From an uncultured Acidobacteriota bacterium (GTDB lineage Bacteria > Acidobacteriota > Terriglobia > Acidiferrales > UBA7541), in the NCBI GenBank assembly GCA_963751295.1, contig CAVVUA010000004.1, forward strand, positions 231,000 through 270,999: 40,000 bases of DNA, in the 5' to 3' direction. Shown in pieces: positions 20,835 through 36,780 of this stretch. Every line of letters begins with the position of its first letter. Positions within the stretch are counted from its first letter, which is position 1. The notes beneath the pieces are model-generated. The model searched no databases. It was not told the DNA's origin and worked only from the letters and a program-made list of their open reading frames with translations. Both the position numbers and the translations under genes were made by a program.

Positions 20835-21458
20835 TTATGCCCCTGCATGAGTTGTGCGACCTTTGGGCGCGGCTAGCGATTGCAAAGCTGCACGCAACAA
20901 TTTCTCGAAATTCGTTGTGCCAGCTTCGCGTTTGGCTTCGCTTGCCGCGGTTTCAGCGGCGCGCGCATCGTAGCCTAGATTGATTAACGCGGAGATTACA
21001 TCGGCTTCTGCGCCTGCGGGGGAGGCGACAGCTGGTTTCTGGGTTTCTAACACGACGGCTTCAAGCTTATCTTTTAGCTCAACGACCATGCGCTCAGCGG
21101 TTTTGCGGCCGACGCCGGGAATTTTCGTTAAGCGGCCCAAATCGTTGCCACGAATGGCAGGGACGAGTTCTTCAACACTCATGCCAGAGAGAATTTTCAA
21201 GGCCAAAGAAGGGCCGACGCCGGAAGCAGAGAGGAGCAACTCAAAAAGATGCTTCTCACGGGAGGAAACAAAGCCGTAGAGGGCGAGAGCGTCCTCGCGA
21301 ACATGCGTGTGAATGAGAAGGGTGACTTCGGTGTGGAGTTCACCGAGCGCGGCGTAAGAGGAAAGGGGGACTTGAACAAGGTAGCCTACGCCGCCGACAT
21401 CGACGAGCACTTGATTCGGGCGTTTTTCGGCGAGGCGTCCACGGAGTTGGCCAATCAT
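20835..21458 (-). CDS. ruvA: Holliday junction DNA-binding protein RuvA
   Basis: MIGQLRGRL...VDVGGVGY, HhH motifs (LTKIPGVGRKTAERM) and C-terminal domain III. Lies directly upstream of ruvB. Confidence 0.95.
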   Translation of the reverse strand: MIGQLRGRLAEKRPNQVLVDVGGVGYLVQVPLSSYAALGELHTEVTLLIHTHVREDALALYGFVSSREKHLFELLLSASGVGPSLALKILSGMSVEELVPAIRGNDLGRLTKIPGVGRKTAERMVVELKDKLEAVVLETQKPAVASPAGAEADVISALINLGYDARAAETAASEAKREAGTTNFEKLLRAALQSLAAPKGRTTHAGA

Positions 21459-21466
21459 GGAAGGCC

Positions 21467-21495
21467 AGTATTGCCGCCTTTTCTTCGCCTGTCAA
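21467..21495 (-). promoter_or_regulatory. candidate sigma70-like promoter of ruvA (TTGACA-17 nt-AATACT), with the -10 ending 8 nt before the ATG
   Basis: The minus strand reads TTGACAggcgaagaaaaggcggcAATACTggccttccATG. Five of the six -35 bases lie inside the left copy of the 14-bp target duplication. Confidence 0.3.
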
Positions 21496-21504
21496 CGCGG
21501 TTGG
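21491..21504. repeat. left copy of the 14-bp target-site duplication GTCAACGCGGTTGG
   Basis: Identical 14-mer at 36767-36780. Each copy directly abuts the outer end of a terminal inverted repeat. Confidence 0.85.
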
Positions 21505-21587
21505 GGGTTAAGTTACAGGCGGGGGAAAAGTGATACACCCCTGAAACGCAGTCTTTCTCAATTGAGCGCCGTTGAAATGGAAGTGCG
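21505..21587 (+). repeat. left terminal inverted repeat (36-bp perfect core 21505-21540, second conserved block 21564-21587)
   Basis: GGGTTAAGTTACAGGCGGGGGAAAAGTGATACACCC is identical to the reverse complement of 36731-36766. AGCGCCGTTGAAATGGAA(G/A)TGCG is also shared. The ORF track shows the same peptide, LSYRRGKSDTP, at both ends. Confidence 0.92.
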
Positions 21588-21842
21588 TGGGTTCTCAGTT
21601 AGTAGATTGAGATTTGTGCGGGAATGCGCATGGTGCTAATCACGGATGAGAATGAAAGACTTCGTCCGAAAAGGGTTGGGCACAAACGGAGAAAACCTCG
21701 TGAACGCAGGTCACTGCGACCGTCTCTCTTCCGTATCTTGTTGAAGGTGTTCGACTAAGATTATCAAGTGCACGGGTTTTGCGCATCCGGGAGCAACAAC
21801 GAGCTCCGCGGGGTAATATAAACGGTTTCGTGAGGTAGGCAA

Positions 21843-23108
21843 ATGCCGTGGTATGCATACGGCTATTTCGTCAGGCTGCCCGATCGCCGTATCGTTCATG
21901 CCGGCCATGATTTTGGTCCAACGCTCGATCTTTACACGGTAGGCAGCAGCCTCGGCGTGAAAGGCGATACGGAGGGATTCGTAATTGGCATACTGAAGGG
22001 GGAGCCGGCAAAATTGAGCGGTGGCTACGACGTTTTTGTGCTTGTGGAGCAGAGACGCGTCCGCGAGAAAGGATCTTCACCACCGCCAGCTTGGGACTTC
22101 TTCCAAAGAGATGAGGGGCGCGAATTTGTCGAGACGTTGATGGTTGGCCCTGCAAGGCTTGTTAGCAGGCCTCAAATTCAGGCGACTTTCCAGGGCCAGA
22201 AATTCCGGGCCGTAGGTAAGAATCTCTATCGGCGACCTCTGAATGAGAGTTTCTATGATTTCGAGGTAAATCATCTTCTGTGGCTACTCGGCGAGGACTG
22301 GTACAACGCCGAGATGGGGAAACATCCTGACGAGCGGCATGTCATTTTGAAATGGCGTGCAGAGCGCAACGAGCAGCTACGGAGATATCAAGATCCCAAG
22401 GACCCAGCCGGGCTAGTGCGCGCACCTGTCACTGGCGGCATGAGGGCTCTTCAAGTTTTAGCTGACGACCTCTACCAATTGGCTCACGCGCTTGAACCGC
22501 CCAGGAAGATTCTCGCCCGGCTCCGCGACATCAAGCATTTCCAGGGAGCAAGGTACGAGATCTTGACCGCTAGTCTGTTTGCTCGTTGTGGTTTTGAAGT
22601 TGAGTTTATAGAGGACAGCTCGCAAAGGAATCCTGAATTTATCGCTCAGAAAGACGGCGAAAGGATAGCGGTAGAGGCCAAGAGTAGGCATCGTGCCGGC
22701 GTCCTTAATGAGAGGGGCGACTTTCGGAAAGACGCAGCCGCAGAGATTCGTCGGTTGTACGAGGACGCAGCAGGTCAAAATCCTGGAGCATTTCCGTTTT
22801 TGATTTTCATCGATGTGAACCTGCCGTTGACGCCAGAGGTCCCCCCGCTAGAAAAGCAGTGGATCATTGAGGCGATGCAGGTGTTCGAGCACCGCGAACA
22901 AGAAGGCCTCCAAAATAGGGACACGGTTCTGATTCTCACCAATTTTGGCTGGCATTTTTCACGAGAGGAAGGCGCGCCGCCTGGGGAAAACTTTTGGGCA
23001 CGAGTCGAGCACCCCCAATATCCTGTCCGGATGAGTACTCTGGATCTTTTGGCTCGCGCACTGGGTGAATACGGAAAAGTAGTTGATGAGGAAGAACGAC
23101 GCGGTTAG
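21843..23108 (+). CDS. hypothetical protein with a C-terminal PD-(D/E)xK nuclease-like motif (casposon cargo)
   Basis: 421-aa ORF. GARYEILTASLFARCGFEVEFIEDSSQRNPEFIAQKDGERIAVEAKSR fits an E...PE...ExK restriction-endonuclease-like core. Confidence 0.55.
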   Translation: MPWYAYGYFVRLPDRRIVHAGHDFGPTLDLYTVGSSLGVKGDTEGFVIGILKGEPAKLSGGYDVFVLVEQRRVREKGSSPPPAWDFFQRDEGREFVETLMVGPARLVSRPQIQATFQGQKFRAVGKNLYRRPLNESFYDFEVNHLLWLLGEDWYNAEMGKHPDERHVILKWRAERNEQLRRYQDPKDPAGLVRAPVTGGMRALQVLADDLYQLAHALEPPRKILARLRDIKHFQGARYEILTASLFARCGFEVEFIEDSSQRNPEFIAQKDGERIAVEAKSRHRAGVLNERGDFRKDAAAEIRRLYEDAAGQNPGAFPFLIFIDVNLPLTPEVPPLEKQWIIEAMQVFEHREQEGLQNRDTVLILTNFGWHFSREEGAPPGENFWARVEHPQYPVRMSTLDLLARALGEYGKVVDEEERRG

Positions 23109-23241
23109 CGATTAGTTAACTGCAAGAATTGAATTCGGATTGAACGCCGGTCCCCGCAACCGTCGCTCGGCCAGCCATCTCGAACGAGCAGCAGGGTTTG
23201 TTTTTCAATTGCACTTGCTTTGCACAGATCGCTCCGTCTGA

Positions 23242-24021
23242 TCAGTATCCCTTGGGAGCAATTATGACTTTCACCGCGAATCCATCTTCAATTCTGCTGA
23301 GGTCGTCCTCGATACCGCGCGGATTTGTTACCCGTCCCTCAGGATCGTAGACGAAACAGATGAGTCGTTTGCAGCCTTGGTGGGCCCGATATCGGGCGAT
23401 ATCCTCGATGAGTTGGCTGCCGATCTCTTTTGCGGCTAATCCTACGCGAGTTTTCTTGGTCTCAATCACATTATCCGGTGGCAAAAAAAAATCCATACGT
23501 GACGATTTACCTGCGTAGCTGGGTGTCCACTCCTCAGTCCTTATGTCTTCGAAAAAGACCCGGAGCATCGCGTGCATGAGATCTTGAACGTCATACTCGT
23601 CAGCGACATCGATGCTCGGCCGGTTATCATGTCGGTCTCTAATTTGCATCGCTACTGTGTGAAATCGCATACACAAGAGTTCGATGGCATCGGTATGCTG
23701 AGGGAGAACGGGAACCGCAGGGGTGATGATGAGTTCGTCAGAAACATCCTTTGCGCCGGGCTCCCCCCGATACCAATCCAAGTGTCCCTGGAAAGCGAAA
23801 AGACCAGTGTAACCGCTGGCAAATTCGGTTCGCCCTTCCTCCGTCTGAACGATTTGGACGCGCTCTATCTGGTCGGGCATTATCGTGCGCCCACCCAGAA
23901 TGATCGGTTGCCAACTCTTATAGGGAACGAGTACTTGCCGCTCTAGTTGCTCACGCGTGATGCTGAGCCTCACTTCGAGAGGTGGAATCTTGGTCGTATG
24001 AATCACAACGTGGAAATTCAT
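23242..24021 (-). CDS. PD-(D/E)xK nuclease-like protein (casposon cargo, downstream of cas1 on the same strand)
   Basis: 259-aa ORF. DEYDVQDLMHAMLRVFFEDIRTEEWTPSYAGKSSRMDFFLPPDNVIETKK gives a D/E...D...ExK arrangement. Confidence 0.6.
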   Translation of the reverse strand: MNFHVVIHTTKIPPLEVRLSITREQLERQVLVPYKSWQPIILGGRTIMPDQIERVQIVQTEEGRTEFASGYTGLFAFQGHLDWYRGEPGAKDVSDELIITPAVPVLPQHTDAIELLCMRFHTVAMQIRDRHDNRPSIDVADEYDVQDLMHAMLRVFFEDIRTEEWTPSYAGKSSRMDFFLPPDNVIETKKTRVGLAAKEIGSQLIEDIARYRAHQGCKRLICFVYDPEGRVTNPRGIEDDLSRIEDGFAVKVIIAPKGY

Positions 24022-24178
24022 AATCGTCCCAGTATCTGCCCGACAGTTCGCGCAGAGCAGACATGGATTCTAGTCCTGGTTTCCGACTACGCACAAGAAT
24101 AGAAGAGCGACCTTGGGGTGAACTCAGGTTCACCGAACCGTTGCTCACTCTCAAGTGACCCTGGACGACTTCCGGGCG

Positions 24179-25396
24179 TTACGCAGAAACGCAGTTACCG
24201 CAGACCGGACTGGTGGAAAGTCGAATCTGGCCACACACTCGACAAAGCATAGGCCTCGCACGTTTAGTATCGCCCACACCTCCGTTGAGTTTTTCTCTGC
24301 CCTCGCTTTTGTGAGCCTGCGTCAACCGAGTCGCCGGAACTTGAGTCCGCACCTGTCGCATTTTCGAATCCCAAATGCATCGGGCAATCCACTCGGCAAA
24401 GGCGCTAACGGCGGTGCGCCACATTGTCGCTGTTTCCGACAGGATTTCAGCAAACGATCCCATAAGCCGACAATTGCCGTCGCGCTGTTCGAAGAACCAC
24501 TCACGCCTTAATTGTTCTTTAAGCAGTAGATCGAGAACTAGACAGTCAACCTTCGGTCGGATGGGTTCCATGAGGTCGCAAGCAAGACTGTCGCGACTGC
24601 GCAAATCGTTGTGCAGAACTCCAATACCTGGATCTAGCCCGAGTGTGGCAAGTGCCAATCGAGACTCGGACTCCAACACCGCATATAAGTAGTTCAAAAT
24701 TGCGTTGGCTGGATTGACAGCCAGTCGCGGCGAGTTGGTAAGAGGCGATATGCGGCTCCCAAATCGCCGCCAGTGTTCTGGAATTTTCGACGAATCTGAC
24801 TTGCTGAAATTCACAGGAAGCTCTCGCATTGCACTCCAATAGGCTTTAGCGCCTTTGGCTTCCCATCGCCTGATTTCCTCTTTTGATTTTGCAGTGCCGA
24901 CTAGCTTCCGTGCAGCTGCGATGTCAGATGAGCAGGGCGACTCCCTGAAGTAAGTGTTTATGATTCTTTCTTGCGCCAAGAGTTTTTCTGAAATCAATTC
25001 TCGGGCAATCTTTAGAGCAATGCCGGACTCTTGCGCAAGACTTTGGGATCGTCGGAGCCGCGCATCAGATGGGTTCACCGGGCCGGTTGTCGCCAAGACT
25101 TTTCCGTCTCGCTCAAGCAAAACGAAACTTGCGTCTTGGTCTGCGAGCCATCTAAGGGCCGCAAGCGAAACCGATCCGTCCGATCCAATAGCCACGACTC
25201 GCTTAATGCCATGCCTCACTCGGGCAAACCGACCGTAGCGACGCCTTGGCCCAATTCTGTCCTCCAAAATGAGATGGCCGCGGTCAACACACAGACGGGT
25301 GCCATAGCCGTAGAGAGTTACGACGCCACGGTGCGGCGTAATTGGAGTGAAATTGCACTGCGGTCGATCTTGCGGTACGGTCAGCGTAGCTGCCAT
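24179..25396 (-). CDS. cas1: Cas1-family integrase (casposase-like), with a C-terminal CxxC...CxxC zinc-ribbon tail
   Basis: N-terminal beta domain (LILEDRIG..., KRVVAIGSDGSVSLAALRWLADQDASFVLLERDGKV). Catalytic helical domain with WEAKGAKAYW (E), NPANAILNYLYAVLESE and GVLHNDLRSRDSLACDLMEPIRPKVD (H, D/E). The tail is CRVCGQIRLSTSPVCGNC. Confidence 0.9.
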   Translation of the reverse strand: MAATLTVPQDRPQCNFTPITPHRGVVTLYGYGTRLCVDRGHLILEDRIGPRRRYGRFARVRHGIKRVVAIGSDGSVSLAALRWLADQDASFVLLERDGKVLATTGPVNPSDARLRRSQSLAQESGIALKIARELISEKLLAQERIINTYFRESPCSSDIAAARKLVGTAKSKEEIRRWEAKGAKAYWSAMRELPVNFSKSDSSKIPEHWRRFGSRISPLTNSPRLAVNPANAILNYLYAVLESESRLALATLGLDPGIGVLHNDLRSRDSLACDLMEPIRPKVDCLVLDLLLKEQLRREWFFEQRDGNCRLMGSFAEILSETATMWRTAVSAFAEWIARCIWDSKMRQVRTQVPATRLTQAHKSEGREKLNGGVGDTKRARPMLCRVCGQIRLSTSPVCGNCVSA

Positions 25397-25794
25397 CGGA
25401 GTTCAAGCTCCCTTGGTGGTTAGGGCTTGTCGTCTGCGCAAACAGACGGCAGGCCCGTTTATTTCCTTCATTTTACCATCTAATGCCACTTCGGGCACAG
25501 GCGCGCACTTGACAGCCCAGTGGTGCACGGTGCAAATTCTATCTAGCAGCTGGGAACTAGTAGATATGCCTACGGCGGTCCCAAACCGCCCGAAGGGTAC
25601 AGTCCTCACTAGACCCGCGCTTCGCGATTCCAGTAGGAAGTAGCACTGGGCGTATCGGAATCAATCAGTATGCCCTGCATCTTGCATCGTGCAGGGAACG
25701 CAAAAGATTGATTGAGGCGAGGGAGAAAAAGGGACCTGGGCTCAGGCTGAGCAAACGAACTCCTGCAGATGACATCACTCTTGGAGTGTGTCAA

Positions 25795-26598
25795 ATGCAG
25801 GAATCGATTTTGCTTCGCAGTAGAGTTCTCTTCAGCCGTCGAGAGTTCTCAACGCTCACCGGCTTATCACTCAGAACAATCGCAAAGCTGATTGCCTCGC
25901 GAGAATTGAAGTCTATTCTCGTGGGACGGCGGCGGCTGATTCCACGTTCGGAGTTGGCTCGATTCATCAGGCGTGACCATCGCATCGGTGCGCCATCAAC
26001 GGCGGCTCTGCGACTCAGATCTGGCAACCGCAAGATTCGAAAGCCGCTCAAGAAACGCAAGACCCGTGGTGGTAATGGCCGTCGCGTAAATCAGAAACGT
26101 AGAAGCCCCCGCAAACGCGGTCGAGTGAGGCCGCAGAGAATCGGGCCAGCCATCACAGACCCACGCGTCGCCCGGGGTTTGGGGCTAATGCGTAGGGAGG
26201 GAGTGTCAGCTTCCGAGGCGGCTCGCCGAGAGCGAATGAAATTAGAGACTTTTCGGCGACGAGCGGGAAGATATCTTTATCGATCTGGCCCAGGCAAGCC
26301 TTGGAAAGCACGCAGCGAGGACCAACTGGCCTTCTCGATGACCGTCCTAACCAGCCGTGGGCCACTCGACGCTGTTATTCACAATTCGCGCGAACGGAGG
26401 CTGCTCCATCGATATGAAGTTGCCCTCAGAATGTTTCGAGCCGGTGAAGATGGAGTGGAAGCAGCACTCAAAGCGTTCAAAGGTAAGTCTGTTGGCGGAC
26501 ACAAGCTCATTACCGATACAAAACTGCTCATCGAATTAGAGGAAGCTGGGCTGCTCGATTTCGGCAGCCTCTATACTTCGTTCGGAGCACGGTCATGA
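25795..26598 (+). CDS. HTH (excisionase/MerR-like) DNA-binding protein with a highly basic linker; first gene of the polymerase operon
   Basis: FSTLTGLSLRTIAKLIASRELKSILVGRRRLIPRSELARFI is an HTH_17-like motif. It is followed by RKIRKPLKKRKTRGGNGRRVNQKRRSPRKRGR. The stop overlaps the next start (ATGA). Confidence 0.7.
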   Translation: MQESILLRSRVLFSRREFSTLTGLSLRTIAKLIASRELKSILVGRRRLIPRSELARFIRRDHRIGAPSTAALRLRSGNRKIRKPLKKRKTRGGNGRRVNQKRRSPRKRGRVRPQRIGPAITDPRVARGLGLMRREGVSASEAARRERMKLETFRRRAGRYLYRSGPGKPWKARSEDQLAFSMTVLTSRGPLDAVIHNSRERRLLHRYEVALRMFRAGEDGVEAALKAFKGKSVGGHKLITDTKLLIELEEAGLLDFGSLYTSFGARS

Positions 26599-26888
26599 GA
26601 TCGCGCGACGGGTCACAGCCTATCTGCGTGATTTGTGGCAAGGACGCTACGTTGGAATTCAACCATGCCGCGGGTAAGAAACATATACCGTGGTTCAAAA
26701 TTCCCTTTTGCGAGCAGCATCATCATCAGTTTCATCGCCTACTAGAAAGTGTGGGCCTTAACCTTCGCTACACACCCAATAAGTTGAAACGCTTGGTAAT
26801 TGCGGCACTTGCCCTGACTATAGCTCTATGGATGGTGCTTCAAGCCCTCGGGGAAACCGTCTCGCATCTTCCCGAAAAGGACACTTAG
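26595..26888 (+). CDS. small HNH-like nuclease-motif protein with a C-terminal TM helix
   Basis: CVICGKDATLEFNHAAGKKH...PFCEQHHHQFH resembles a CxxC...HNH...CxxH beta-beta-alpha-Me finger. Translationally coupled to the upstream gene. Confidence 0.5.
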   Translation: MRSRDGSQPICVICGKDATLEFNHAAGKKHIPWFKIPFCEQHHHQFHRLLESVGLNLRYTPNKLKRLVIAALALTIALWMVLQALGETVSHLPEKDT

Positions 26889-26902
26889 CCACCAAAAGAG
26901 AT

Positions 26903-29141
26903 ATGTCTGAGCAGGAATCTCCCGAAATCTTCGTGCGGGCGCATACAATCGTCCGCACGAAGAAGAACGCGAGGGATCGCAGATGGTCGCCAAAATGGCC
27001 CAAGTACTGCCTCATCTTCGATACCGAAACCACTCTTGATCCCACTCAGAAACTTAATTTTGGTGCCTACCGCCGATGCCAACGCGTGGGTGATAAATAT
27101 ATATGTGTGGCCGAAGGAATTTTCTATAAGGATGATCTTCCTGAACGCAAATTAAAACTCGTACAGCGATACAAGAGCAACCCTAAGACTCTTCCATCGA
27201 TTGAAGTGTTTCCCGCGCAAATGGCGCTCGGTCTGATGAGTCGCTCTGCATTTGTCAGTCGAATCTTTTGGAAATCCGTGCGGAAAGGGGAGCTGATTGT
27301 TGGTTTTAATTTGCCGTTCGACCTATCGCGATTGGCGATCAAAGCGACTGCCGGAAAAAAGGGTGACTGGTCCTTAGCACTCTCCCAGCTTTGGGAGAAT
27401 CCCAAGACAGGGCGAATCGTACCAAACCCGAAGCGACCCCGAATTATTGTTGACGCTCAAAACAGCAAGATGGCTTTTATCAAACTAGGCAGCATTTTGC
27501 ACAAGAAGGAGTGGCCAAAAGAAGGTCGCTTCCTTGATCTGCGAACTCTCGGCTGGGCGTTAAGGAATGTGTCCTTTAGCTTGAAAGTTGCCTGTAAGAA
27601 GTTCCACGTCAAAGGGAAACCAGATCACAAGCCCTCAGGAGAGATCAATTCCGAAGAGATGGAGTACTGTCGAGGTGATGTGGCGGCCACGCACCGCTTG
27701 CTAAATGCGATGATGGCGGAATTTAATCGGAATCCTCTTGATTTGCATCCCGACAAAGCCTACTCACCTGCTTCGATTGCCAAAGACTATTTGACGGAAA
27801 TGGGAATCAAGCAGCCCAAGGATCATTTCGAAGTCCCTAACAAGACTTTGGGAATTGCAATGCAAAGTTATTATGGCGGTCGGGCAGAGTGCCGGATCAG
27901 AAAAACTCCCGTTCCAGTGATCCACACTGACTTCACCAGCCAATATCCAACTGTCAACGCACTCTTGGGAAACTGGAATGTGCTTACTTCCAGCTCTGTC
28001 CGGTTTGTAAATTGCAAAGCATCTGCCAAAAAGCTGCTTTCGAAAGTATCTCTGAAAAACATGTTTGATCCGGGTTTCTGGAAACAGCTCTCGTTCTTTG
28101 CGCTTGTAAAGCCCAAGAACGACATTCTTCCAGTGAGAACGATTTACAAAGGAAGAACGCAGAATATCGGACTTAATTATCTGACTTCTGACAAACCCAT
28201 TTGGTATGCGGGCCCCGATCTCATAGCTTCCAAAATCCTCACCAAGAGAGCTCCCAAAATCCTAAAAGCGCTCCGCATGGTGCCACACGGTCGACAATTA
28301 AATTTGCAATCTCGAAATCTACAGGGAATGGTGGAAATAAATCCTGCAAAGGATGATTTCTATCGGAAGGTAATCGAACAGAGAATCTCCCATAAAGCAC
28401 AAAACAAGCCTTTGGCTGACTTTCTCAAAGTACTGGCAAACTCGGGAAGTTATGGCTTGTTCGTGGAGGTAAATACCGAAACGAAGAAAAAAGAAACGAA
28501 AGTGCCTTATTTTTCCGGCGAGAAAAAAGGAAGAATCCCCTCTACCTACGTAGAAAAGCCAGGCGCTTGGTATTTTCCTCCGGTGGCATCTCTCATTACA
28601 TCTGGTGGCAGGTTATTACTCGCGATGCTGGAAAAGAGTGTCGATGAAAGTAGGGGAAGCTACTTGTTCTGCGATACTGATTCGCTTTGCATCGTGGGGA
28701 CGGAAACGGGGAGTTTTGTTCCTTGCGTAGGGGGGAAGCATTTTTCCAAAGGAAAACCAGGCTTCAGAGCACTGTCACTGCGGGAAGTAAGATCAATCGC
28801 AAGTAAATTCAGAAAACTAAACCCGTACAATCCTTCCCTCGTAACTGAAATCCTCAAGATCGAAGACATCAACTTCTTGGATGACGATCCCAAGAAACGA
28901 TTCCGCCAGCTTTTTGGCTACGCGATTTCCGCGAAAAGATATGCGCTTTACACAAGATCGGGAAGTGACATTCAAATTGAAAAAGCCAGCGGGCACGGTC
29001 TCGGATATCTCTGTGCGCCAAAGGAAAGAGAAGATGATGAGAAAACTGATGAGGAAACAGATGAGGATGAAGCGCCGCAGTGGGTAACGGAAGCTTGGGA
29101 CTTTCTTTTGAGGAAAGAACTGGGATTGCACTCCAAGGAAC
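26903..29141 (+). pseudogene. family-B DNA polymerase, N-terminal ~746 codons (exonuclease and polymerase core), truncated by an IS3 insertion
   Basis: ExoI CLIFDTETT, ExoII GFNLPFDLSRL, ExoIII YCRGDVAATH, SYYGGR, motif A HTDFTSQYPTV, motif B KVLANSGSYGLF, motif C LFCDTDSLCI, KxY AISAKRYALY. The track ORF 26828..29272 continues into IS sequence. Confidence 0.9.
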
Positions 29142-29201
29142 TGTCTTGCCTCAGCTGGAACCGGAGAAGGCGTTCTTCCGTTAAGATAACGGAGAGGGCG
29201 C

Positions 29202-29510
29202 ATGAGAAAAGGGCGAAAGCACTACACCGGAGAAGAGAAGGTTGCCATCCTGAGACGGCACTTGTTGGATAAGGTGCCGGTTTCTGATCTCTGTGAGGAG
29301 CATGGACTGCAGCCGACCGTGTTCTACCGCTGGCAGAAAGAGTTCTTCGAGAATGGCGCGGCCGCCTTCCAGGGCAAGGGCCGGCAGGACCACCAAGGTG
29401 AACAACAACGGATCGAGTTCCTGGAAAAGAAGATCCACACCAAAGACGAGGTGCTGGCTGAATTGATGGCCGAGCACATCGCCTTAAAAAAAAGTCTTGG
29501 GGAGCTCTGA
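29202..29510 (+). CDS. IS3-family transposase OrfA (HTH)
   Basis: MRKGRKHYTGEEKVAILRRHLLDKVPVSDLCEEHGLQPTVFYRWQKEF is typical of IS3 OrfA. Confidence 0.9.
   Translation: MRKGRKHYTGEEKVAILRRHLLDKVPVSDLCEEHGLQPTVFYRWQKEFFENGAAAFQGKGRQDHQGEQQRIEFLEKKIHTKDEVLAELMAEHIALKKSLGEL
29486..29494 (+). other. programmed -1 ribosomal frameshift site (A AAA AAA AG) joining OrfA to OrfB
   Basis: A run of eight A followed by G. A shift from the orfA frame to -1 reads ...KKSWGALTKVWVPPDV, which merges with the OrfB N-terminus. Confidence 0.75.
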
Positions 29511-29515
29511 CCAAA

Positions 29516-30547
29516 GTGTGGGTGCCGCCCGATGTGCGGGACCAGGTGGTGGATTTCGTCCGGTGCTGGTCGGAAAAAACAGAGATCGGTACCGGACGAT
29601 TCATCCACTGGCTGGGCGTACGACCCAGCAAGTTCTACGACTGGCGGGAGCGCTATGGGCACGTCAATGAGCACAACGGTTGGGTTCCTCGCGATTTCTG
29701 GCTACAACCGTGGGAGAAGCAAGCCATCATCGGCTTCCACCGGGAACATCCCTTGGAAGGCTATCGACGACTGACGTTCATGATGCTGGACGCCGATGTT
29801 GTGGCCGTCAGCCCCTCCAGCGTTTGGCGAGTGCTCCAACAAGCCGGATTGCTCTCCCGATGGAAGGGTAAGCCTTCGCGCAAGGGGAGCGGTTTCGAGC
29901 AACCACCGCACGCGCACCAGCATTGGCACATCGATGTTTCCTACATCAACGTGAGCGGCACGTTCTATTACCTGTGCAGCATTCTGGATGGCTATAGCCG
30001 TTCGATCGTTCATTGGGATCTGCGGGAATCGATGACCGAAGCGGAGATCGAAGTCATTTTGCAACGAGCGCGGGAGAAATATCCGGAAGCGAAACCGCGG
30101 ATCATCTCCGACAACGGACCACAGTTTATTGCCAGGGATTTCAAGGAATTCATTCGCATCGCGGGGATGACCCACGTGCGAACCTCGCCCGGCTATCCGC
30201 AATCGAACGGGAAACTTGAACGCTGGCACAAATCGCTAAAAGCGGAGTGCATCAGGCCAGGTACACCGTTGACGAGAGAAGACGCGGTGCGTTTGATTCA
30301 AGCCTACGTGGATCACTACAACACCGTGCGCCTGCACAGCGCTATCGGCTATGTGACGCCGCACGATATGCTCGCCGGGAGACAGGCTGAGATCCACGCG
30401 GCACGCGATCGCAAGCTGGAGGAAGCGCGTCACCAACGGCAGTTCCGGCGGGAGGCCAGATCGCTGCTTGCACATTCTTCGAACACGACTACAATGACCT
30501 CGCCAGGTGAAACAGAAGCGGGCTCTGCAGGGATGCAACCATGCTGA
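29516..30547 (+). CDS. IS3-family transposase OrfB (DDE/rve integrase core)
   Basis: HWHIDVSYI (D), IISDNGPQFIA (D) and PQSNGKLERWHKSLK (E). Frame is -1 relative to orfA. Confidence 0.9.
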   Translation: MWVPPDVRDQVVDFVRCWSEKTEIGTGRFIHWLGVRPSKFYDWRERYGHVNEHNGWVPRDFWLQPWEKQAIIGFHREHPLEGYRRLTFMMLDADVVAVSPSSVWRVLQQAGLLSRWKGKPSRKGSGFEQPPHAHQHWHIDVSYINVSGTFYYLCSILDGYSRSIVHWDLRESMTEAEIEVILQRAREKYPEAKPRIISDNGPQFIARDFKEFIRIAGMTHVRTSPGYPQSNGKLERWHKSLKAECIRPGTPLTREDAVRLIQAYVDHYNTVRLHSAIGYVTPHDMLAGRQAEIHAARDRKLEEARHQRQFRREARSLLAHSSNTTTMTSPGETEAGSAGMQPC

Positions 30548-30735
30548 GGGATAACCTGGTAGGACTCATCGAGCCGATGCGAATCAGCGCGGGAGTTGAT
30601 CCTCTCGCGCTGAGCATCCAGAAACAGGCATCGGACGATAGATCCTCATGCCTTGAAAATCCCCGTCCCGAATGGGCGGAATCTTCACTAACGGAAAACG
30701 TCACCTCTCCATTTCAGGCTGAGCCAGCACAGAAC

Positions 30736-31427
30736 CATCATGGTTGGACTTGCCCGCAATGATGCGAATGGTGGTAACAACCCCCAACGTATTGAAGCAT
30801 CAAAGGCCAGAGTGGCTGGGACCGTTCAATTTCTTCTTGTTTCCTTTGCTCTCTGAAGTTGGCGGATATCCTTCGGGTTTCGACAAATCCAATTTTATGT
30901 TCATAACCCCCAACGAATCGAAGCGAAGCAAGTGGAAATCGCTCGGCGGGATCAATTTATATGACGGGCGAAGCTATCAGATCGCGATGCGCCCCACGGC
31001 AAAGCAGGACAAGGTAATTCCAGAATCTTTTCGAATCATCCTGAACCAATACTTGGGCAAGGCTGAGGTGAAATCGCTAGCCCCGGACGGAACGCCATGC
31101 ACCGGAACTACTCAAGGGTTGCTCCTTAGAGCAAGAATTGTTGCGGGCAAATTGATTCCCGTCGGTAAAGAGACGGATCGAAAGTGGGAGCACGGTGGAG
31201 ATCCGAGTATGCTGGATTCCCAGGTCCATGTATATGAGAAGCAGCGAAAAATGGTTATCGCTAACGCTTTGGAGAGGAACACATGGTTGGCCATCGGCGT
31301 TAGGCGCTTGATGAGAGAAACAAAGCTAAGCCAAGCACCAGTCTCCAACGCTATCAGGGGCAAGCCGGTCCGTCCTGGCACTCTGGCGATCATCAGAGAG
31401 ACGGCAGCCAGGATACTGGCCGAGTAA
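30736..31427 (+). pseudogene. family-B DNA polymerase, C-terminal ~230 codons separated from the N-terminal part by the IS3 element
   Basis: Deleting 29142-30735 joins ...GAA C|CA TCA TGG TTG GAC... This gives ...HSKEPSWLDLPAMMRMVV..., in frame with track ORF 30744..31427. The reconstituted ORF is ~976 codons from the ATG at 26903. Confidence 0.85.
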
Positions 31428-31433
31428 TGGTAC

Positions 31434-31580
31434 GGGACTTGTCCGGTAAGGCGACTTCTGCTTATCCGGTTGTTTCAGCAAAACCGGATATCTTGGGCGT
31501 CGTCGACGCCAGCACCACAACGGCTGGGTGGCGACCTGAAGCAACCGGATAAGCAAGAGGCGACTAATCGGGAGTTATGG
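31434..31580 (+). repeat. palindromic cargo motif, copy A (GGGACTTGTCCGGTAAGGCGACT...AATCGGGAGTTATGG), interrupted in its loop by a 101-bp insert
   Basis: Starts 7 nt after the PolB stop. With 31457-31557 removed, it aligns at about 33 of 40 positions with copy B. Confidence 0.7.
31457..31557. mobile_element. MITE-like 101-bp insert with 16-bp terminal inverted repeats and an 8-bp duplication AGGCGACT
   Basis: TCTGCTTATCCGGTTG ... CAACCGGATAAGCAAG match at 14 of 16 positions as inverted repeats. AGGCGACT sits at 31449-31456 and 31558-31565. The internal palindrome is GGCGTCGTCGACGCC. Confidence 0.35.
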
Positions 31581-31863
31581 CCTCCCATGATTGCCGAGGA
31601 CCCATTGGTCACACCCCACCACAACAATTGAGCAGCATTTTTCAATTGCTTTGTAAACTCCGCATGTGGTGTCCAGAAAAGAGCGGACTATGGTGCGACA
31701 AACCCTCAGTCGGGTCAGTATTGTTTTCAGTCTGTTGTCTGCGTTTTCGCTAGCGAGGATGGTTGCATCGCGGTAACCAATTCCGAGATCGAGGAAATCT
31801 GGCCCATGGTGGCGGTTGGTACCGCTGTGGAAATTCGTCCGTAGGTAGCTCGAACTGACCAAC

Positions 31864-31900
31864 GGAACTTGTCCGATAACGCGACAACCAGGAGTTAGGT
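31864..31900 (+). repeat. palindromic cargo motif, copy B (GGAACTTGTCCGATAACGCGACAACCAGGAGTTAGGT)
   Basis: Aligned by eye to copy A. Unoccupied. Confidence 0.65.
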
Positions 31901-31952
31901 ATGTGCCACGATTAAGATCATCTATCCTGTTGATCGATTAGAATGAAAGTCT

Positions 31953-32243
31953 ATGGCAACTCGCGTCATAGTCGGAGTCGTCGCGCTGGCCTGTTTTTCG
32001 ATCTGTGGCATGCTCTCGACCTTTACAAGGTACGAGATGATGGACAAAGTAAATGAAAAACTTCCAAAAGAGGAACAGTTTGGGGCGCTCTGGTGGTATG
32101 CATCCAAGTACCAACGACTCAATCGTGAATACAAAAAGCTGTATCCAGACGGGGACCTTCTCTTAAAGATTCGCGTGCTTATTGCGCTGATGTTTGCTTG
32201 TTTGCTCGTTTGCGTTTTGGGATTCGGAATCTTCGCAAAGTGA
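31953..32243 (+). CDS. small two-TM membrane protein (cargo)
   Basis: 96 aa. The hydrophobic helices are VIVGVVALACFSICGMLSTF and VLIALMFACLLVCVLGFGIF. No clear RBS. Confidence 0.45.
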   Translation: MATRVIVGVVALACFSICGMLSTFTRYEMMDKVNEKLPKEEQFGALWWYASKYQRLNREYKKLYPDGDLLLKIRVLIALMFACLLVCVLGFGIFAK

Positions 32244-32259
32244 GCGTGAAATCCATTTG

Positions 32260-33101
32260 GTCGAGTAGCCGGGCGCCATCGCTGGCGCCCAGCCCTCTAA
32301 GAACCGGACTTGAAGGTTTCCCATTCATCCGGCTCGAGCACTCAAAAACGCCCCCCTGAACAACGAGGACGCGGCCTGATTCAAAAACGAAGCAGACCTA
32401 CTCGATACTGACTTGCTGCCGATTCGCACGACGGTGGAAAATCCACCAATCGTGTGTGAAGCCGCACCAACGGGTTGCCCCGTCGTCATTTGCTTTGCTT
32501 CATGCATCGGTTCCTCAAGAGTTCTCGAGCTGAGCACCAACAGGAAGTCAGCTCCGTTTCCGGCGAGGTGATCTTGTCCCAACCTGGCGACGCAACCTCT
32601 ATCTGCCCGATTACAGGGCAGCCTTCGCTTGCTCCCATTTCCGTTACCCGCATCGCCATCAGTGCCATCTTGCGATGGACTTTCCCCTTGCGAGGAGCGC
32701 TACGGGCTTACCCTGTTCCGCTGAAATGACGCGATCGGTTAGATCTGCTCCCTACGCCGGCAGTGTTGATTACCCATGACAGAGGAACCGGAAGCCTCTG
32801 TACTCACTGCAAGAAGAGCCACGCAGCATTTTAGGCTCTCTTCGTCTGACGACGCTTACGAGCATTTGTATATTCTGATCGTACGATCAAGCCTAGGCCC
32901 GTCTCCGCCTAATGCTGGCAGGTACACCGTGGCCTCACGGTTTCGGTGCCGCTCTTGCGAGCGTGGATACATTTTTCCAAGGGCTCCAGAACAGTTCGTT
33001 ACCTCCCCGCTCTGCCTTGTAGGCTACGTGCGATGGGACGCACGGTCTGATCGAGTTCCTCCTCTCCAGACAATCATCTTCAGCAGCTTTACAGGTCGCA
33101 C
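32260..33101 (-). mobile_element. ORF-less group II intron (842 nt)
   Basis: On the minus strand the 5' end is GUGCGAC. Domain V is at 32301-32335. The D6-like helix has a bulged A 7 nt from a ...CUACUCGAC 3' end. The D5-to-3'-end segment (41 nt) aligns with that of the neighbouring intron and shares AGCGAUGG. No credible ORF inside. Confidence 0.62.
32301..32335 (-). ncRNA. group II intron domain V of the ORF-less intron
   Basis: GAGCCGGAU-GAAUGG-GAAA-CCUUC-AA-GUCCGGUUC. It has the AGC triad, a GNRA tetraloop, a 2-nt bulge and a 9-bp basal helix. Confidence 0.65.
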
Positions 33102-33130
33102 TCCGGTAAGACGACTAATCAGGACTTGAC
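33102..33130 (+). repeat. palindromic cargo motif, copy C (TCCGGTAAGACGACTAATCAGGACTTGAC), abutted by the 5' end of the ORF-less intron
   Basis: It lies 15-20 nt downstream of the stop of the 252-aa minus-strand gene. On the minus strand it reads ...CCTGATTAGTCGTCTTACCGGA|GUGCGAC. Confidence 0.65.
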
Positions 33131-33145
33131 CGCGAGGACAACAAG

Positions 33146-33904
33146 TCACAAGTCGGGCAGGGCTGTTATGAAGCCCTTTGGGCGCTCGCTAACAGGATTT
33201 GGGGCATCAACGCTGACATGAGGATTCCATTCGTAAGTTATTTCTGCCCAGCCCCCGCTGGTGGTCAAGTGGTACGGCAAATGGTCTGATGTGCCAACGC
33301 AAACAGTGTCGTGCATCACTCGCCCGGTCTCCTCAATTGTCCAAGTATAACTCCACTCAAGACAGGGATGTCCCGCGTAGGTTTTTAGCCCTTCTGGATG
33401 CATGTTTACGCCATGATAGTTGGACCAGAAACTCGTCTCTATGGAATCGAAGCTGTACCCAATCGTACGCGGATTGCTCATGTGCAAGCGCAGCTCAAAA
33501 AAACCGTCCAACGGCGGCATATCTCTCGGAATCAATTTTATCCATAGTGATGAGCTTTTGTGACCGAACATTGCATCGCCACGAAAATATCGGTCATCTC
33601 GGACCCGGATGTATTCAAGATCACCCGCGATGCGAATGCTCTTTGAGTCCCCTGCTTCTGCTGTGCGGTCAACATGCTGCCATCCATGCTCGCGGTCGGG
33701 CGGGACTGCTTCGATCGTCATCCACTCTTTCGGGAGTTTTGGATCTGTCGATTGCAAATGCATACGCCAGCTTTTCGTTCTGGAAATCGCCCAATCCGTG
33801 CGAAGTAGCCAGTAATCCGCTCGTTTGTCTGACCAGTTTTTTGCAGCCCAAATTGAACCCGCCGCAATCAGCGCGGCAATCCCATACAATAGAATCTTTT
33901 TCAT
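33146..33904 (-). CDS. secreted hypothetical protein (cargo)
   Basis: 252-aa ORF with the signal peptide MKKILLYGIAALIAAGSIWAA. No family recognised. Confidence 0.6.
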   Translation of the reverse strand: MKKILLYGIAALIAAGSIWAAKNWSDKRADYWLLRTDWAISRTKSWRMHLQSTDPKLPKEWMTIEAVPPDREHGWQHVDRTAEAGDSKSIRIAGDLEYIRVRDDRYFRGDAMFGHKSSSLWIKLIPRDMPPLDGFFELRLHMSNPRTIGYSFDSIETSFWSNYHGVNMHPEGLKTYAGHPCLEWSYTWTIEETGRVMHDTVCVGTSDHLPYHLTTSGGWAEITYEWNPHVSVDAPNPVSERPKGFITALPDL

Positions 33905-34039
33905 GAGCCTGAGAGAAGATTAGAGCACTTCCTGTCTAGATTCCAATCACGCTTGGAGCCGCTCAGCTATCTAGTAATGACCCGTGTACGGGCCTAAGTG
34001 TCGCGGTAGGGACGACCATCGCTGATCGCCCCCCGCACA

Positions 34040-34071
34040 GAACCGTACGGGCGCTTCTACGCATACGGCTC
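34040..34071 (-). ncRNA. group II intron domain V (32 nt)
   Basis: GAGCCGUAU-GCGU-AGAA-GCGC-CC-GUACGGUUC. The AGC triad and 2-nt bulge are present. Confidence 0.85.
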
Positions 34072-35634
34072 CCACCTTGGATGAGTGGCGAGGAAACGAG
34101 CTATAGGATAAGGATGCAAAACGCGTGGGGCGGGAATCCACCGCTTGAAGATCCGGGTGGTCCGGATCCACGACGTTGGTCGTTGACTGCGACGGCGTAG
34201 AAGGAGCCGCCACAATCGCCGCAAGCGTTGTCCGAAGATACTCAACCGGACGATGTTTCCCGGGACCGCATGGTAGCGGTAGTAGCCGTTCACAACCTTT
34301 CGTAGCCATGCACCGACGTCGGCAATCGGCTCGTGCATGCGGAGGCGCAGTTCTGCTTTGAGTGCGTGCAGCTTCGCCACCATGCGTTTCTTCGCCGTTT
34401 TCCGCCAGACGATGAACGACCCGTTGCTCCGGCGCTTCCCGCAGTGATGCGTAAAGCCCAGGAACGTGAAGGTCTCCGGCTTCCCTACTCCACGCTTCTC
34501 CCGATCTTGGGCAGCGAACCGCCCAAACTCGATCAGTCGTGTTTTCTCCGGATGTAGTTCCAATCCGAATTTAGCCAATCGTTCCCGAAATGCTTCCAGG
34601 AATCGCTCGGCCTCCACTCGGTTTTCGAAACCCACCACCAGATCATCGGCGTAGCGGACGACGATCACATCACCCGTGGCCACTTTCTGGCGCCAAGCCT
34701 CGATCCACAGGTCGAATACGTAATGCAGGTACACATTGGCTAGCAATGGAGAAACCACTGCTCCTTGCGGTGTTCCTACCTTACTCTCCGACCATTGGCC
34801 GTCTTCCGATATCCCCGCCTTCAACCATTTCTGGATCAGGCGCAGGATCCGGCGATCGGCTACGCGGTGCTCAACAAACTTCATCGTCCATTCGTGACTC
34901 ATATTGTCAAAGAAGCCTCGAATGTCGGCGTCAAGCACCCAGTTCACGCGCTTCCTTTGGAGGCCCACCGTCAGCGCGTCCAGCGCTTGGTGCGGGCTGC
35001 GTCCGGGACGGAACCCATACGAGAATCCTTGGAAGTCCACCTCATAAATCTGGTTGAGAATGGTCACCACGGCTTGCTGTACGATTTTGTCTTCCAGCGC
35101 CGCAATACCCAACGGGCGTTTCCGCCCGTCAGCCTTCGGTATGTAGACTCTTCGTGAGGGCTGTGCCCGATACGCTCCTCGGTGTACCCGGTTGTGTAGA
35201 TCGGTAAGCCGACCTTCTAACCCGGTTTCATACTCCTGCCATGTCACGCCATCTACTCCCGGCGCGGCTTGCCGCTTTAAGGCGTAGTAGCTGTCCCGGA
35301 GTAAATCCACGCTCACATGGTGTAGCAAAGCTGTGAACCGTTCTTGCCTCCTTTTCTTTGCTGCTTCTCGCACACCGCCCAATCCCTGGGACACTCGTTC
35401 TCCGCTCTGTGTCGGGTGAGTGTTGGGTTGAACGATGTTCTCCTTGGCCCGCACCCTTTTCTCCCCAGGCTCCGCCGAAGATCGCTCCTCTTTGTTCGTC
35501 TGGTTCATCGATAGTATGGTGCGGTCCGACTCCTCTGGAGCGTGCGCGTCCGCCTTCTGGCTTTGCGCCTTCGCGGACCGGCCTCGTTCCCTTTCGGGCC
35601 GAGGCGCTCCAGAGGTCTCCCGGTTCTCGTGCAT
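34057..35634 (-). CDS. group II intron-encoded reverse transcriptase/maturase
   Basis: RT blocks (APGVDGVTW, RRVYIPKADGRKRPLGI, VLDADIRGFFDNMSH, GTPQGAVVSPLLANVYL, VVRYADDLVVGF) and a maturase/X region. No C-terminal HNH endonuclease. The first ~90 aa are low-complexity, so the start may be the internal ATG at 35508. Confidence 0.92.
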   Translation of the reverse strand: MHENRETSGAPRPERERGRSAKAQSQKADAHAPEESDRTILSMNQTNKEERSSAEPGEKRVRAKENIVQPNTHPTQSGERVSQGLGGVREAAKKRRQERFTALLHHVSVDLLRDSYYALKRQAAPGVDGVTWQEYETGLEGRLTDLHNRVHRGAYRAQPSRRVYIPKADGRKRPLGIAALEDKIVQQAVVTILNQIYEVDFQGFSYGFRPGRSPHQALDALTVGLQRKRVNWVLDADIRGFFDNMSHEWTMKFVEHRVADRRILRLIQKWLKAGISEDGQWSESKVGTPQGAVVSPLLANVYLHYVFDLWIEAWRQKVATGDVIVVRYADDLVVGFENRVEAERFLEAFRERLAKFGLELHPEKTRLIEFGRFAAQDREKRGVGKPETFTFLGFTHHCGKRRSNGSFIVWRKTAKKRMVAKLHALKAELRLRMHEPIADVGAWLRKVVNGYYRYHAVPGNIVRLSIFGQRLRRLWRLLLRRRSQRPTSWIRTTRIFKRWIPAPRVLHPYPIARFLATHPRWEPYA

Positions 35635-35916
35635 GTTGTTTCTCAGCGTGCGCGGGTTCTTAGACTACGCAGGACCGACTGCTCGCTCGCGTTTATCGCG
35701 AAAACAGCCGTATTGCCTTCCTCCAATCAGGAGAGAGTCGGCGTCCTGGTTTGCGTTTTTCGAAGTTCAATAGCCCGGCCCACCGATACCCCTGTCTACG
35801 CTTCGGGCGACACCTCGCGATGTCACCTGCAAGACTGAGGGCCAAGATGGAGTCGCTGTCTCCTTTCTTGTGGGACTCTTTCATTCCCTACAACACGCCG
35901 GTTTAACCCGGCGCAC

Positions 35917-35945
35917 CCCGATTAACGCTAGCGCCGTTACCGTCC
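35917..35945 (-). repeat. palindromic cargo motif, copy E (minus-strand GGACGGTAACGGCGCTAGCGTTAATCGGG), split from its ACTTAGG continuation (33993-33999) by the 1.9-kb intron
   Basis: The 5' exon ends ...GTTAATCGGG|GUGCG. The rejoined exons give TAATCGGG|ACTTAGG, compared with copy A TAATCGGG AGTTATGG. Confidence 0.6.
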
Positions 35946-35966
35946 AAATGAAGTTTTACTTTACAT

Positions 35967-35990
35967 CTCCGGTAAGCCAACTAATCGAGC
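35967..35990 (+). repeat. palindromic cargo motif, copy D (CTCCGGTAAGCCAACTAATCGAGC)
   Basis: Aligned by eye. It forms an inverted pair with copy E, 21 bp away. Confidence 0.5.
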
Positions 35991-36126
35991 ACTGGCAAGT
36001 GATGTTTTGAGGTCACACCGTGGAAGCGTTGTCCGGACACGGCTAGAATGAGAATCAGGGACACCGTGACTCGCATCGCTCGCTTGTCTGCGCAATCGGG
36101 GACAAGGGACGCACGCGTTGATTCTA

Positions 36127-36393
36127 ATGAAACACTCTCGAACGAAGATGTTCATATTGGCAGTGTTCTTTATCGCGGCTACTGCCATCGGTTGCTGGGC
36201 GGAATTTCGCCCGCTGACAAGCGACGTCCTAGGCATGTTCGCGCTGCCCGGAGTCTTCCTCTCCTTGTGCTTTAGCATCGGCCCCCATGGATCAACAAGG
36301 TTGTTCCTCTGGTCGGGGCCAATCTGTAACGGCGTCGCCTATACGGGGCCTCTTGCTTTCGTGTTCTGGTTGCGCGCTAAACTTTCACACTAA
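36127..36393 (+). CDS. small membrane protein (cargo)
   Basis: MKHSRTKMFILAVFFIAATAIGCW... with 2-3 hydrophobic helices. The TTG at 36118 is an alternative start. Confidence 0.4.
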   Translation: MKHSRTKMFILAVFFIAATAIGCWAEFRPLTSDVLGMFALPGVFLSLCFSIGPHGSTRLFLWSGPICNGVAYTGPLAFVFWLRAKLSH

Positions 36394-36682
36394 CTGCGGG
36401 GACCGCTTTGCAGCGCGGCGTGGTTGGCAGTAACGATCCAAAGTCCTGGGAAACGCCGTTACCGGAAAAGTGGAAATGCAAACTGGATTCGTACTTTTCA
36501 GTTTTTACGAAGATCATTCCTCGTCGCAATGTACTTTCCAAGTGTGTTTGTGACGCACGCGAATCGTATTTGCAAGTGGCCTAGTTTCAGTGGTTTCTGC
36601 CAGCGGAACGCGTCAAAAGCGTTCGCACGCCGCTTCTCATAAGCACACCCGTGAAAATCACGGTGCGCGCTGGTAAAACAAT

Positions 36683-36766
36683 CGCATTTCCATTTCAACG
36701 GCGCTGCATTGCGCGAGCACGCGTTTCCACGGGTGTATCACTTTTCCCCCGCCTGTAACTTAACCC
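36683..36766 (-). repeat. right terminal inverted repeat (perfect core 36731-36766)
   Basis: Its reverse complement matches 21505-21587: 36/36 in the core, then two further conserved blocks separated by a divergent ~14-nt spacer. Confidence 0.92.
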
Positions 36767-36780
36767 GTCAACGCGGTTGG
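36767..36780. repeat. right copy of the 14-bp target-site duplication GTCAACGCGGTTGG
   Basis: Matches 21491-21504 at 14 of 14 positions in direct orientation. It immediately follows the TIR end. Confidence 0.85.

Follow-up and report, generated by a model that had tools for sequence, protein, structure and literature searches.

A family-3-type casposon at the ruvA promoter of an Acidobacteriota bacterium and its relatives at promoter −35 boxes

The element, its ends and its empty sites

The 40-kb stretch of contig CAVVUA010000004.1 analysed here (the window) carries ruvAB, a histidine kinase gene and peptidase genes and, upstream of ruvA, a 15,262-bp element (21505–36766) in which a gene for a Cas1 homologue stands beside divergently transcribed genes for a helix-turn-helix (HTH) protein, a small Cys/His-rich protein and a family-B DNA polymerase (PolB) (Table 1). 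Casposons are proposed ancestors of the CRISPR adaptation machinery and have so far come from few genomes, mostly archaeal, with only a handful of bacterial copies. An initial annotation of the window had called the element a casposon, and the empty site, the Cas1 tree and the family-wide data on terminal repeats and target duplications presented below uphold that call. We consider it very probable that 21505–36766 is a family-3 bacterial casposon that entered an Acidobacteriota chromosome at the ruvA promoter and later received an IS3-family insertion sequence (IS) and introns.

The element ends in a perfect 36-bp terminal inverted repeat (TIR) core, GGGTTAAGTTACAGGCGGGGGAAAAGTGATACACCC, which reads forward at the left end and as its reverse complement at the right (36/36 identical). 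No third copy exists in the window, where not even one would be expected by chance, and beyond the core an imperfect repeat extends to about 83 bp (I1, 88% over 51 nt; I2, 80% over 45 nt). An exact target-site duplication (TSD) of 14 bp, GTCAACGCGGTTGG, abuts both termini; core, extension and duplication are thus as initially described. Three loci from other samples (L003, L004 and L006), found through a RuvA look-up, encode a RuvA identical to that of the window within flanks that are 98–99.9% identical, and lack the element, with the 14-mer present once, so that the boundaries are mapped to the single base and the insertion is polymorphic in nature. The occupied site recurs in L001/L005 and L002, which carry the window's element at 99.99% identity. 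The insertion in the window is precise, recent and polymorphic, and the ruvA site exists in at least three allelic states. The search for other copies found the window's TIR at no fewer than five other sites in metagenomes; three more genomes have it at their ruvA promoter, and at least four additional sites that carry it are promoter-like.

At the ruvA site of L010 (11700–16295) lies a quite different casposon, with a flank identity of 89.5% over aligned stretches, and at that of L087 a diverged copy of the window's type (Cas1 region 86% identical in DNA; flanks 91.5%, again over aligned stretches). The copy on L001, a 358-kb ENA contig (1–1057), departs from the window at 35934 and continues into an IS91/Y2-transposase region. 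A different element end at this position was considered and rejected, the position being where the 5' exon meets a group II intron that bears a reverse transcriptase (RT); the departure is either an assembly join through the repeated intron or a real rearrangement.

The window's RuvA and RuvB are 98.6% and 99.7% identical to those of L010, and 92% and 98% identical to those of L031, a Candidatus Acidoferrum metagenome-assembled genome (MAG). On these identities we place the host in the Acidobacteriota, as initially proposed, as a relative of Candidatus Acidoferrum.

Casposase, polymerase and the Acidobacteriota lineage

The Cas1 homologue matches Pfam Cas_Cas1 (E = 1e-41), and its catalytic residues E179, H262, D274 and E277 are invariant across the family alignment, in agreement with the apparently intact active site that had been noticed earlier; with these residues in place, the casposase is predicted to integrate TIR ends with a staggered cut. 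Its zinc ribbon corresponds to Pfam DUF7577, and relatives of about 510 aa have a zinc-binding domain followed by an HTH tail, as does AceAut-C1. The ribbon, initially listed as setting this element apart, is present but not distinctive, as a zinc-binding domain has been described for the family-3 casposases AceAut-C1 and NitAL212-C1 (PMC4046053).

The best solved structure for the Cas1 family profile is the Methanosarcina mazei casposase (6OPM, 3e-32). By BLASTP against reference proteins, five family-3 casposases come first, led by AceAut-C1 (42% identity, 3.5e-64), followed by all family-2 casposases and then by CRISPR Cas1 proteins mixed with two family-1 casposases; the top 12 references are all casposases. 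A neighbour-joining tree, built on 280 columns of the published alignment of Krupovic et al. (2014) with the window protein and 13 relatives added, gave bootstrap values of 100% for an Acidobacteriota clade, 74% for that clade together with family 3 and 67% for its position as sister to AceAut-C1. By these comparisons, the window Cas1 nests in the family-3 casposases, and not among CRISPR Cas1 proteins.

Source databases label the protein 'CRISPR-associated endonuclease Cas1', a name that would suit a stray cas1-solo gene in an ordinary genomic island whose end repeats belong to a generic genome-wide family. We give this explanation practically no credence, as the empty site and the phylogeny already refute it: the tree groups the protein with casposases, the TIR occurs only at the two element ends and the empty site fixes these ends to the base. 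None of the NCBIfam CRISPR-subtype Cas1 models reaches its cutoff, or comes near it, on the casposase, and no cas2, other cas gene or CRISPR array lies within the 40-kb window, as the initial annotation had stated. A tblastn search of plasmids with the Cas1 reached no reference casposon; all its matches were Cas1 genes of CRISPR systems, 32% identical at most.

Homologues of this Cas1 are numerous, with more than 5,000 in metagenomes at E < 1e-10 and 175 relatives in species-representative genomes. We fetched 79 of the related loci, nearly all from Acidobacteriota/Terriglobia MAGs, and about 70 of them share the Cas1/HTH-(HNH)-PolB core. No paper tying casposons to Acidobacteria was found in the literature searched. 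The earlier suggestion of an undescribed lineage, as argued from differences to described families, is mostly not upheld: the clade was not found in that literature, but its Cas1 groups with family 3. By architecture, the element is a regular family-3 member; the abundance of the lineage, its −35 targeting and its arrays are the new parts. Sequence comparison also suggests that integrase and replication modules have been exchanged between casposons. In L017, L057 and L080, PolB, the HTH protein and the HNH-like protein are 65–78% identical to those of the window and Cas1 only 55–56%; at other loci Cas1 is 58–63% and PolB 34–45% identical.

The HTH/HNH-like/PolB genes initially reported beside Cas1 are present, with the qualifications that the HNH match is only faint and that polB is split by an IS. 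The HTH_17 protein next to polB is conserved across the lineage and the 97-aa Cys/His-rich protein in about 17 loci. In PolB, exonuclease motifs I–III, motifs A, B and C (CDTDS) and the KxY motif are conserved among 16 aligned family members. Its motif C is that of a family-2/3-type polymerase (PolB3-related, PolB_CDTDS), but its best Pfam model is DNA_pol_B_2 (weak and partial, E about 1e-7), and the AF2 model of the window fragment is poor (pLDDT, the predicted local distance difference test score, 54), its Foldseek matches being, with weak support, primer-dependent PolBs. A PDB sequence search with the single PolB gave no match at E ≤ 1, and a search with the PolB family profile only a marginal match to motif C of Pol alpha. 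The PolB_CDTDS group, which is named after motif C and includes the PolB of the A. boonei casposon, is akin to the protein-primed PolB group as well as to the main one (Kazlauskas et al. 2020, PMC7544198), which accounts for the weak DNA_pol_B_2 match. A protein-primed enzyme of family-1 type, in line with the protein-primed-like polymerase initially proposed, was tentatively rejected on motif C and on the profile and fold matches to primer-dependent PolBs.

DNA_pol_B_2 is a model of organellar and viral type, as might be expected of another kind of PolB element—a pipolin, or the remnant of a protein-primed linear plasmid or virus—that bears Cas1 by chance. Such an origin is very improbable in our judgement, because the match is weak and partial and stands beside a CDTDS motif C, a look through the element's genes turned up neither a tyrosine/serine recombinase nor anything for capsids or packaging, about 70 of the 79 loci show linkage of Cas1 and PolB, and a 14-bp TSD with TIRs is the signature of a casposase.

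Insertion at promoters, tandem arrays and cargo

The real novelty of this element, overlooked in the initial annotation, is its targeting of promoter −35 boxes. A TIR/TSD search across the relatives, which used no target information, resolved 35 elements of 7.6–18.6 kb (all but one 12–19 kb) with 14-bp TSDs and GGG-tipped TIRs. The TSD begins with GTCAA (TTGACN on the other strand) in 31 of the 35, and in 29 of these 31 insertions TAnnnT follows 17–18 nt downstream of TTGAC, against a background of 4.6% for all TTGAC sites (p = 5e-37) and 12.4% for intergenic TTGAC (p = 2e-24). The lineage targets a promoter-shaped sequence: TTGACN, 17–18 nt, TAnnnT. In the window, the ruvA promoter reads TTGACA, 17 nt, AATACT and then the ruvA ATG, and the genes behind targeted promoters elsewhere include valS (at least nine loci), ruvA, nuoB, lysS, tig, a TPR protein gene and others. 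Upstream of ruvA, one and the same nucleotide has received a different casposon, with TIRs of its own, in each of five genomes. As the −35 box closes the 14-bp duplication, the core promoter of ruvA is restored intact by the TSD copy on its side. The M. mazei casposase requires about 30 bp of flank in addition to the TSD (PMC6977970), so that the recognition architecture is a familiar one and the recognised sequence is new; the published family-3 TSDs (AGCCGGTACTGCCC and CCCCCCCCCGTATGAGG) contain no TTGAC. Neither promoter −35 targeting nor CRISPR-like tandem arrays of casposons were found reported in the literature searched. The initial annotation had stressed a target outside tRNA genes and gene 3' ends: the site is indeed intergenic, and no tRNA gene lies within the 40-kb window, but all described family-3 casposons are intergenic (PMC4779613).

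No RNA gene turned up at the valS-type site when seven related loci were scanned with Rfam; the target there is the promoter of a protein gene. A conserved flank, ACAGGCG.GAGAAAAGAAGG, was considered as a casposon TIR remnant and rejected, as it is the spacer and −10 box of the valS promoter. Start codons of targeted genes often lie 27–35 nt past TTGAC, a few bases after the −10 box (21459–21504 in the window, and many other sites), and the transcripts of these genes may be leaderless.

Several points weigh against the reading of the element as a promoter-targeted family-3 casposon. The neighbour-joining Cas1 tree has moderate support (74% and 67% on 280 columns), was built without family-4 references and fails to unite all casposases in one clade. 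Many target sites are orthologous across species, so that the independent site classes number about 15, not 31, and the ruvA promoter of the window has AATACT in place of TAnnnT, as does L014. Profile matches of the 97-aa protein are faint (DUF968/HNHc_6), which makes the HNH label putative, and the PolB assignment draws on motif C and on weak profile and fold matches. Cas1 catalysis, replication by PolB and the roles of the HTH and Cys/His proteins are putative.

The association with promoters might itself reflect survivorship, if the casposase read only GTCAA or a short TSD motif and harmless insertions persisted. Insertions within genes would be purged, the TSD regenerates the −35 box, and inheritance may account for many of the sites, which are orthologous hot spots. 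Yet 88% of intergenic TTGAC sequences lack a −10 box and are harmless targets that go essentially unused, and the −10 box lies at fixed spacing in 29 of the 31 sites and, counted per site class, in about 14 of 15 (p = 3e-12). Five different casposons at the exact same ruvA nucleotide and the requirement of the M. mazei enzyme for about 30 bp past the TSD also run counter to survivorship, which we regard as unlikely.

Targeting of promoters by the casposase itself could proceed as follows. Judging from the characterised homologues of A. boonei and M. mazei, two GGG...-tipped TIRs would be bound by an oligomer of the casposase and their 3' ends joined to the two strands of the target with an offset of 14 bp; repair of the gaps would then yield the 14-bp duplication. 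Either unaided or together with the HTH protein or a host factor bound at the promoter, the casposase would read the TSD and about 30 bp on one side, and this TSD-plus-flank would be a sigma-70-type promoter, unlike the M. mazei target. The element's exonuclease-proficient family-B polymerase, made together with the HTH and small Cys/His proteins, is presumed to copy the element. Only the promoter-proximal copy of the TSD would retain the full target, so that successive casposons would stack on the promoter side. The IS3-family element in polB and the two group II introns would have been acquired after integration.

In at least 16 of the 31 insertions, the promoter-distal flank opens with another casposon TIR (22–33 of 36 positions identical; control maximum 20). 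L063 (2648–17915) is ordered as valS promoter, TSD, 13.9-kb casposon, TSD, 1.3-kb TIR-bounded mini-element and TSD, and its three 14-mers are identical (GTCAAACGGCGTCC). Tandem casposons with a shared TSD are known in Methanosarcina (PMC4779613); for the arrays described here, we infer growth on the promoter side.

Two relatives depart from the rule that casposons have no CRISPR array, one carrying an array as cargo and the other adjoining one. L054 (369–13784), a casposon of 13.4 kb, has perfect TIRs of 147 bp and a TSD of 14 bp. Its casposase gene is followed by cas5c, cas8c, cas7c and cas3 and then by a type I-C-like CRISPR array of six repeats; the element yielded neither cas2 nor cas4, and its only Cas1 is the casposase. 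In L072 (5333–7828), the stop codon of a cas1 of the casposase clade, beside a casposon PolB gene, precedes by 24 nt an array of 15 repeats (36 nt, with 30-nt spacers), inside which the contig terminates. The spacers of both arrays had no significant match among the sequences searched. CRISPR-Cas in L054 is cargo and not a fixed feature, because close relatives of its casposase carry other genes, and no CRISPR-Cas, in that slot; L098, for example, has an RND efflux pump there and occupies the same radical-SAM promoter target site. A 2024 review of CRISPR in mobile elements contains no mention of a casposon-borne CRISPR-Cas case. A 96-nt repeat in L015 was rejected as a CRISPR array, being a coding tandem repeat.

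These observations can be joined in one reading, in which this branch would be a sigma-70-promoter-specific integrator (acting through the zinc ribbon, the HTH protein or RNA polymerase) whose promoter-side stacking builds pre-CRISPR-like leader–repeat–insert–repeat arrays, and a member of which (L054) carries a complete type I-C interference module and array with the casposase as sole Cas1. We put this forward tentatively, doubting it slightly more than we believe it.

Because the IS3-family element splits polB, the window copy is probably non-autonomous: its casposase is intact, its ends are perfect and its capacity for self-replication has probably been lost. The IS is flanked by a 4-bp TSD, GAAC (29138–29141 and 30728–30731), and the L001 and L002 copies, otherwise 99.99% identical, lack it and encode an intact PolB of 976 aa. 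The window copy could even be a dead relic, a decaying island that is no longer mobile, given a polB broken after about codon 746 and secondary insertions that make up about 4.4 of 15.3 kb (the original element measuring about 10.9 kb). We lean against this, while granting it a substantial chance, as the casposase frame and catalytic residues are intact, the TIRs are 36/36 identical, near-identical sister copies retain polB, known casposases alone suffice for integration in vitro (PMC6977970) and other copies might provide PolB in trans.

The rest of the element is cargo and secondary insertions, all three of the latter having escaped the initial annotation. The 259-aa protein was assigned by PADLOC to Aga_Helical-REase on its restriction endonuclease (REase) domain only, and the 421-aa protein had no PADLOC match. 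The cargo slot beyond cas1 is highly variable across L098, L100, L101 and the window (21843–24021), with an RND efflux pump in L098, two nuclease-fold proteins in the window and, among the others, a protein with a TIR domain (the protein domain of that name) and one with RHS repeats. The hairpin motifs that were initially thought to partition the cargo turned out to be largely a 20-nt motif, GATTAGTCGYCTTACCGGAG, by two group II introns, plus one hairpin after polB. Both introns were identified by Rfam on the minus strand, the 5' end of the RT-bearing one lying probably at GTGCG (35916). The motif is found on the 5' side of each: at 33101–33120, abutting the intron that lacks an open reading frame (ORF), and at 35967–35986, about 50 nt from the other, where it is followed by an apparent deleted 5' end of the ORF-less intron type. 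The post-polB hairpin looks like an insert of about 110 bp with inverted ends, bounded by a 7-bp direct repeat (GTCGCCT), within a copy of the same 20-nt motif, and may be a tiny miniature inverted-repeat transposable element.

Table 1. Features of the element and its insertion site (window positions)
Feature	Position	Strand	Remarks
Host ruvA	20835–21458	−	Start codon 32 nt from TSD; core promoter is the insertion target
TSD, ruvA side	21491–21504		Minus strand ends TTGAC; single copy in empty sites L003/L004/L006
Left TIR	21505–21587	+	Perfect core 21505–21540, imperfect to about 21587
Cargo gene, 421 aa	21843–23108	+	Weak Mrr-like PD-(D/E)xK signature (Mrr_cat, E = 0.0016, below cutoff); also called in L001
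Cargo gene, 259 aa	23242–24021	−	C-terminal DpnII/MboI-type REase-fold domain (PF18742, E = 2e-52)
Casposase, 405 aa, family-3-clade Cas1 homologue	24179–25396	−	C-terminal CxxC...CxxC zinc ribbon, no HTH tail
HTH_17/excisionase-type DNA-binding protein, 267 aa	25795–26598	+	As called in L001; longest ORF starts at 25708
Cys/His-rich 'HNH-like' protein, 97 aa	26595–26888	+	C-terminal hydrophobic helix
polB 5' part (about the first 746 of 976 codons)	26903–29141	+	ExoI–III, motifs A, B, C (CDTDS), KxY
IS3-family element, 1,586 bp, splits polB	29142–30727	+	orfA 29202–29510, orfB 29516–30547
polB 3' part, last ~230 codons	30732–31427	+	Probable C-terminal HTH; severed from catalytic part
Long imperfect hairpin	31443–31571		36-nt arms, 81% complementary; just 3' of polB stop
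Predicted membrane protein, 96 aa, cargo	31953–32243	+	ORF
ORF-less group II intron	32255–33101 (ends approximate)	−	5' GTGCGAC at 33101; D1–D4 32897–33045; D5/D6 32260–32337
Cargo protein, 252 aa, N-terminal signal-like segment	33146–33904	−	ORF
Group II intron with RT/maturase ORF (34057–35634)	~33995–35916	−	D1–D4 35655–35879; D5/D6 34000–34073
Right TIR	36683–36766	−	Perfect core 36731–36766, imperfect inward to about 36683
TSD, far side	36767–36780		Second exact copy of GTCAACGCGGTTGG

Comparison with known systems

Together, these loci show casposons to be abundant in a soil phylum, with occupied, empty and alternatively occupied alleles of one site existing in nature, a target that is a well-defined and easily mutated −35/−10 pair, and arrays of elements separated by identical 14-bp repeats next to a promoter. 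They offer a bacterial system for studying site choice by Cas1 and the growth of repeat arrays, and many soil-metagenome 'Cas1' genes that are counted as CRISPR markers may be casposases.

The closest known relatives are the family-3 casposons AceAut-C1, NitAL212-C1, StrAlb-C1 and HenMar-C1 (Krupovic et al. 2014, 2016), which share the Cas1 clade, a bacterial host, an intergenic site and a gene set of Cas1, PolB, HTH protein and small, putatively HNH-like protein. NitAL212-C1 (14.4 kb) resembles the window element down to its 36-bp TIR, 14-bp TSD and GGGGTA... tip, and AceAut-C1 resembles it in its zinc-binding domain, the combination of that domain with an HTH recurring in the ~510-aa relatives. 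Unlike these, the window casposase is at most 42% identical to any described casposase, falls into a separate clade with 100% support, and has the zinc ribbon without the HTH tail; the lineage lives in Acidobacteriota, is found in hundreds of copies as opposed to single finds, and its TSD ends in a promoter −35 box.

Family 2 (M. mazei, A. boonei) has in common with the lineage a 14-bp TSD, element 3' ends in ...CCC, conservation of the first 4–5 TSD bases, a target that consists of the TSD and about 30 bp of flank, and tandem copies that share a TSD. Its PolB, of the CDTDS group to which the lineage's polymerase probably belongs by motif C, has a C-terminal HTH-like end as well, and its M. 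mazei member supplies the best structural relative of the window Cas1 (6OPM). The hosts of family 2 are archaeal, however, its targets are tRNA gene 3' ends or specific intergenic sites and not promoters, its Cas1 is only about 28% identical, and its casposase has an essential C-terminal HTH that is absent from the window protein. Family 1 (Nitrosopumilus) shares the concept of a self-synthesizing transposon and a weak DNA_pol_B_2 similarity, whereas its Cas1 is about 25% identical and separate in the tree, and the window polymerase is not phi29-like by motifs or matches. The window element differs from pipolins and polintons in that its polymerase, by motif C and by fold and profile matches, appears to be neither pPolB nor piPolB, and it has no tyrosine recombinase; where pipolins have direct-repeat att sites it has TIRs, and no recombinase or tRNA gene accompanies it.

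CRISPR adaptation by Cas1–Cas2 employs a homologous integrase, duplicates its target beside a promoter-bearing 'leader' and leaves inserts separated by identical short repeats, as do the three 14-mers of L063. It differs in that the casposon arrays involve no Cas2, their inserts are 1–18-kb transposons and not spacers of about 30 bp, the promoter fires away from the array, and the Cas1 stands outside the CRISPR subtype families. If the lineage does integrate by promoter recognition and stack its elements as tentatively proposed above, L054 would permit asking whether a casposase can service a CRISPR array, and these arrays would be a living analogue of the proposed pre-CRISPR state.

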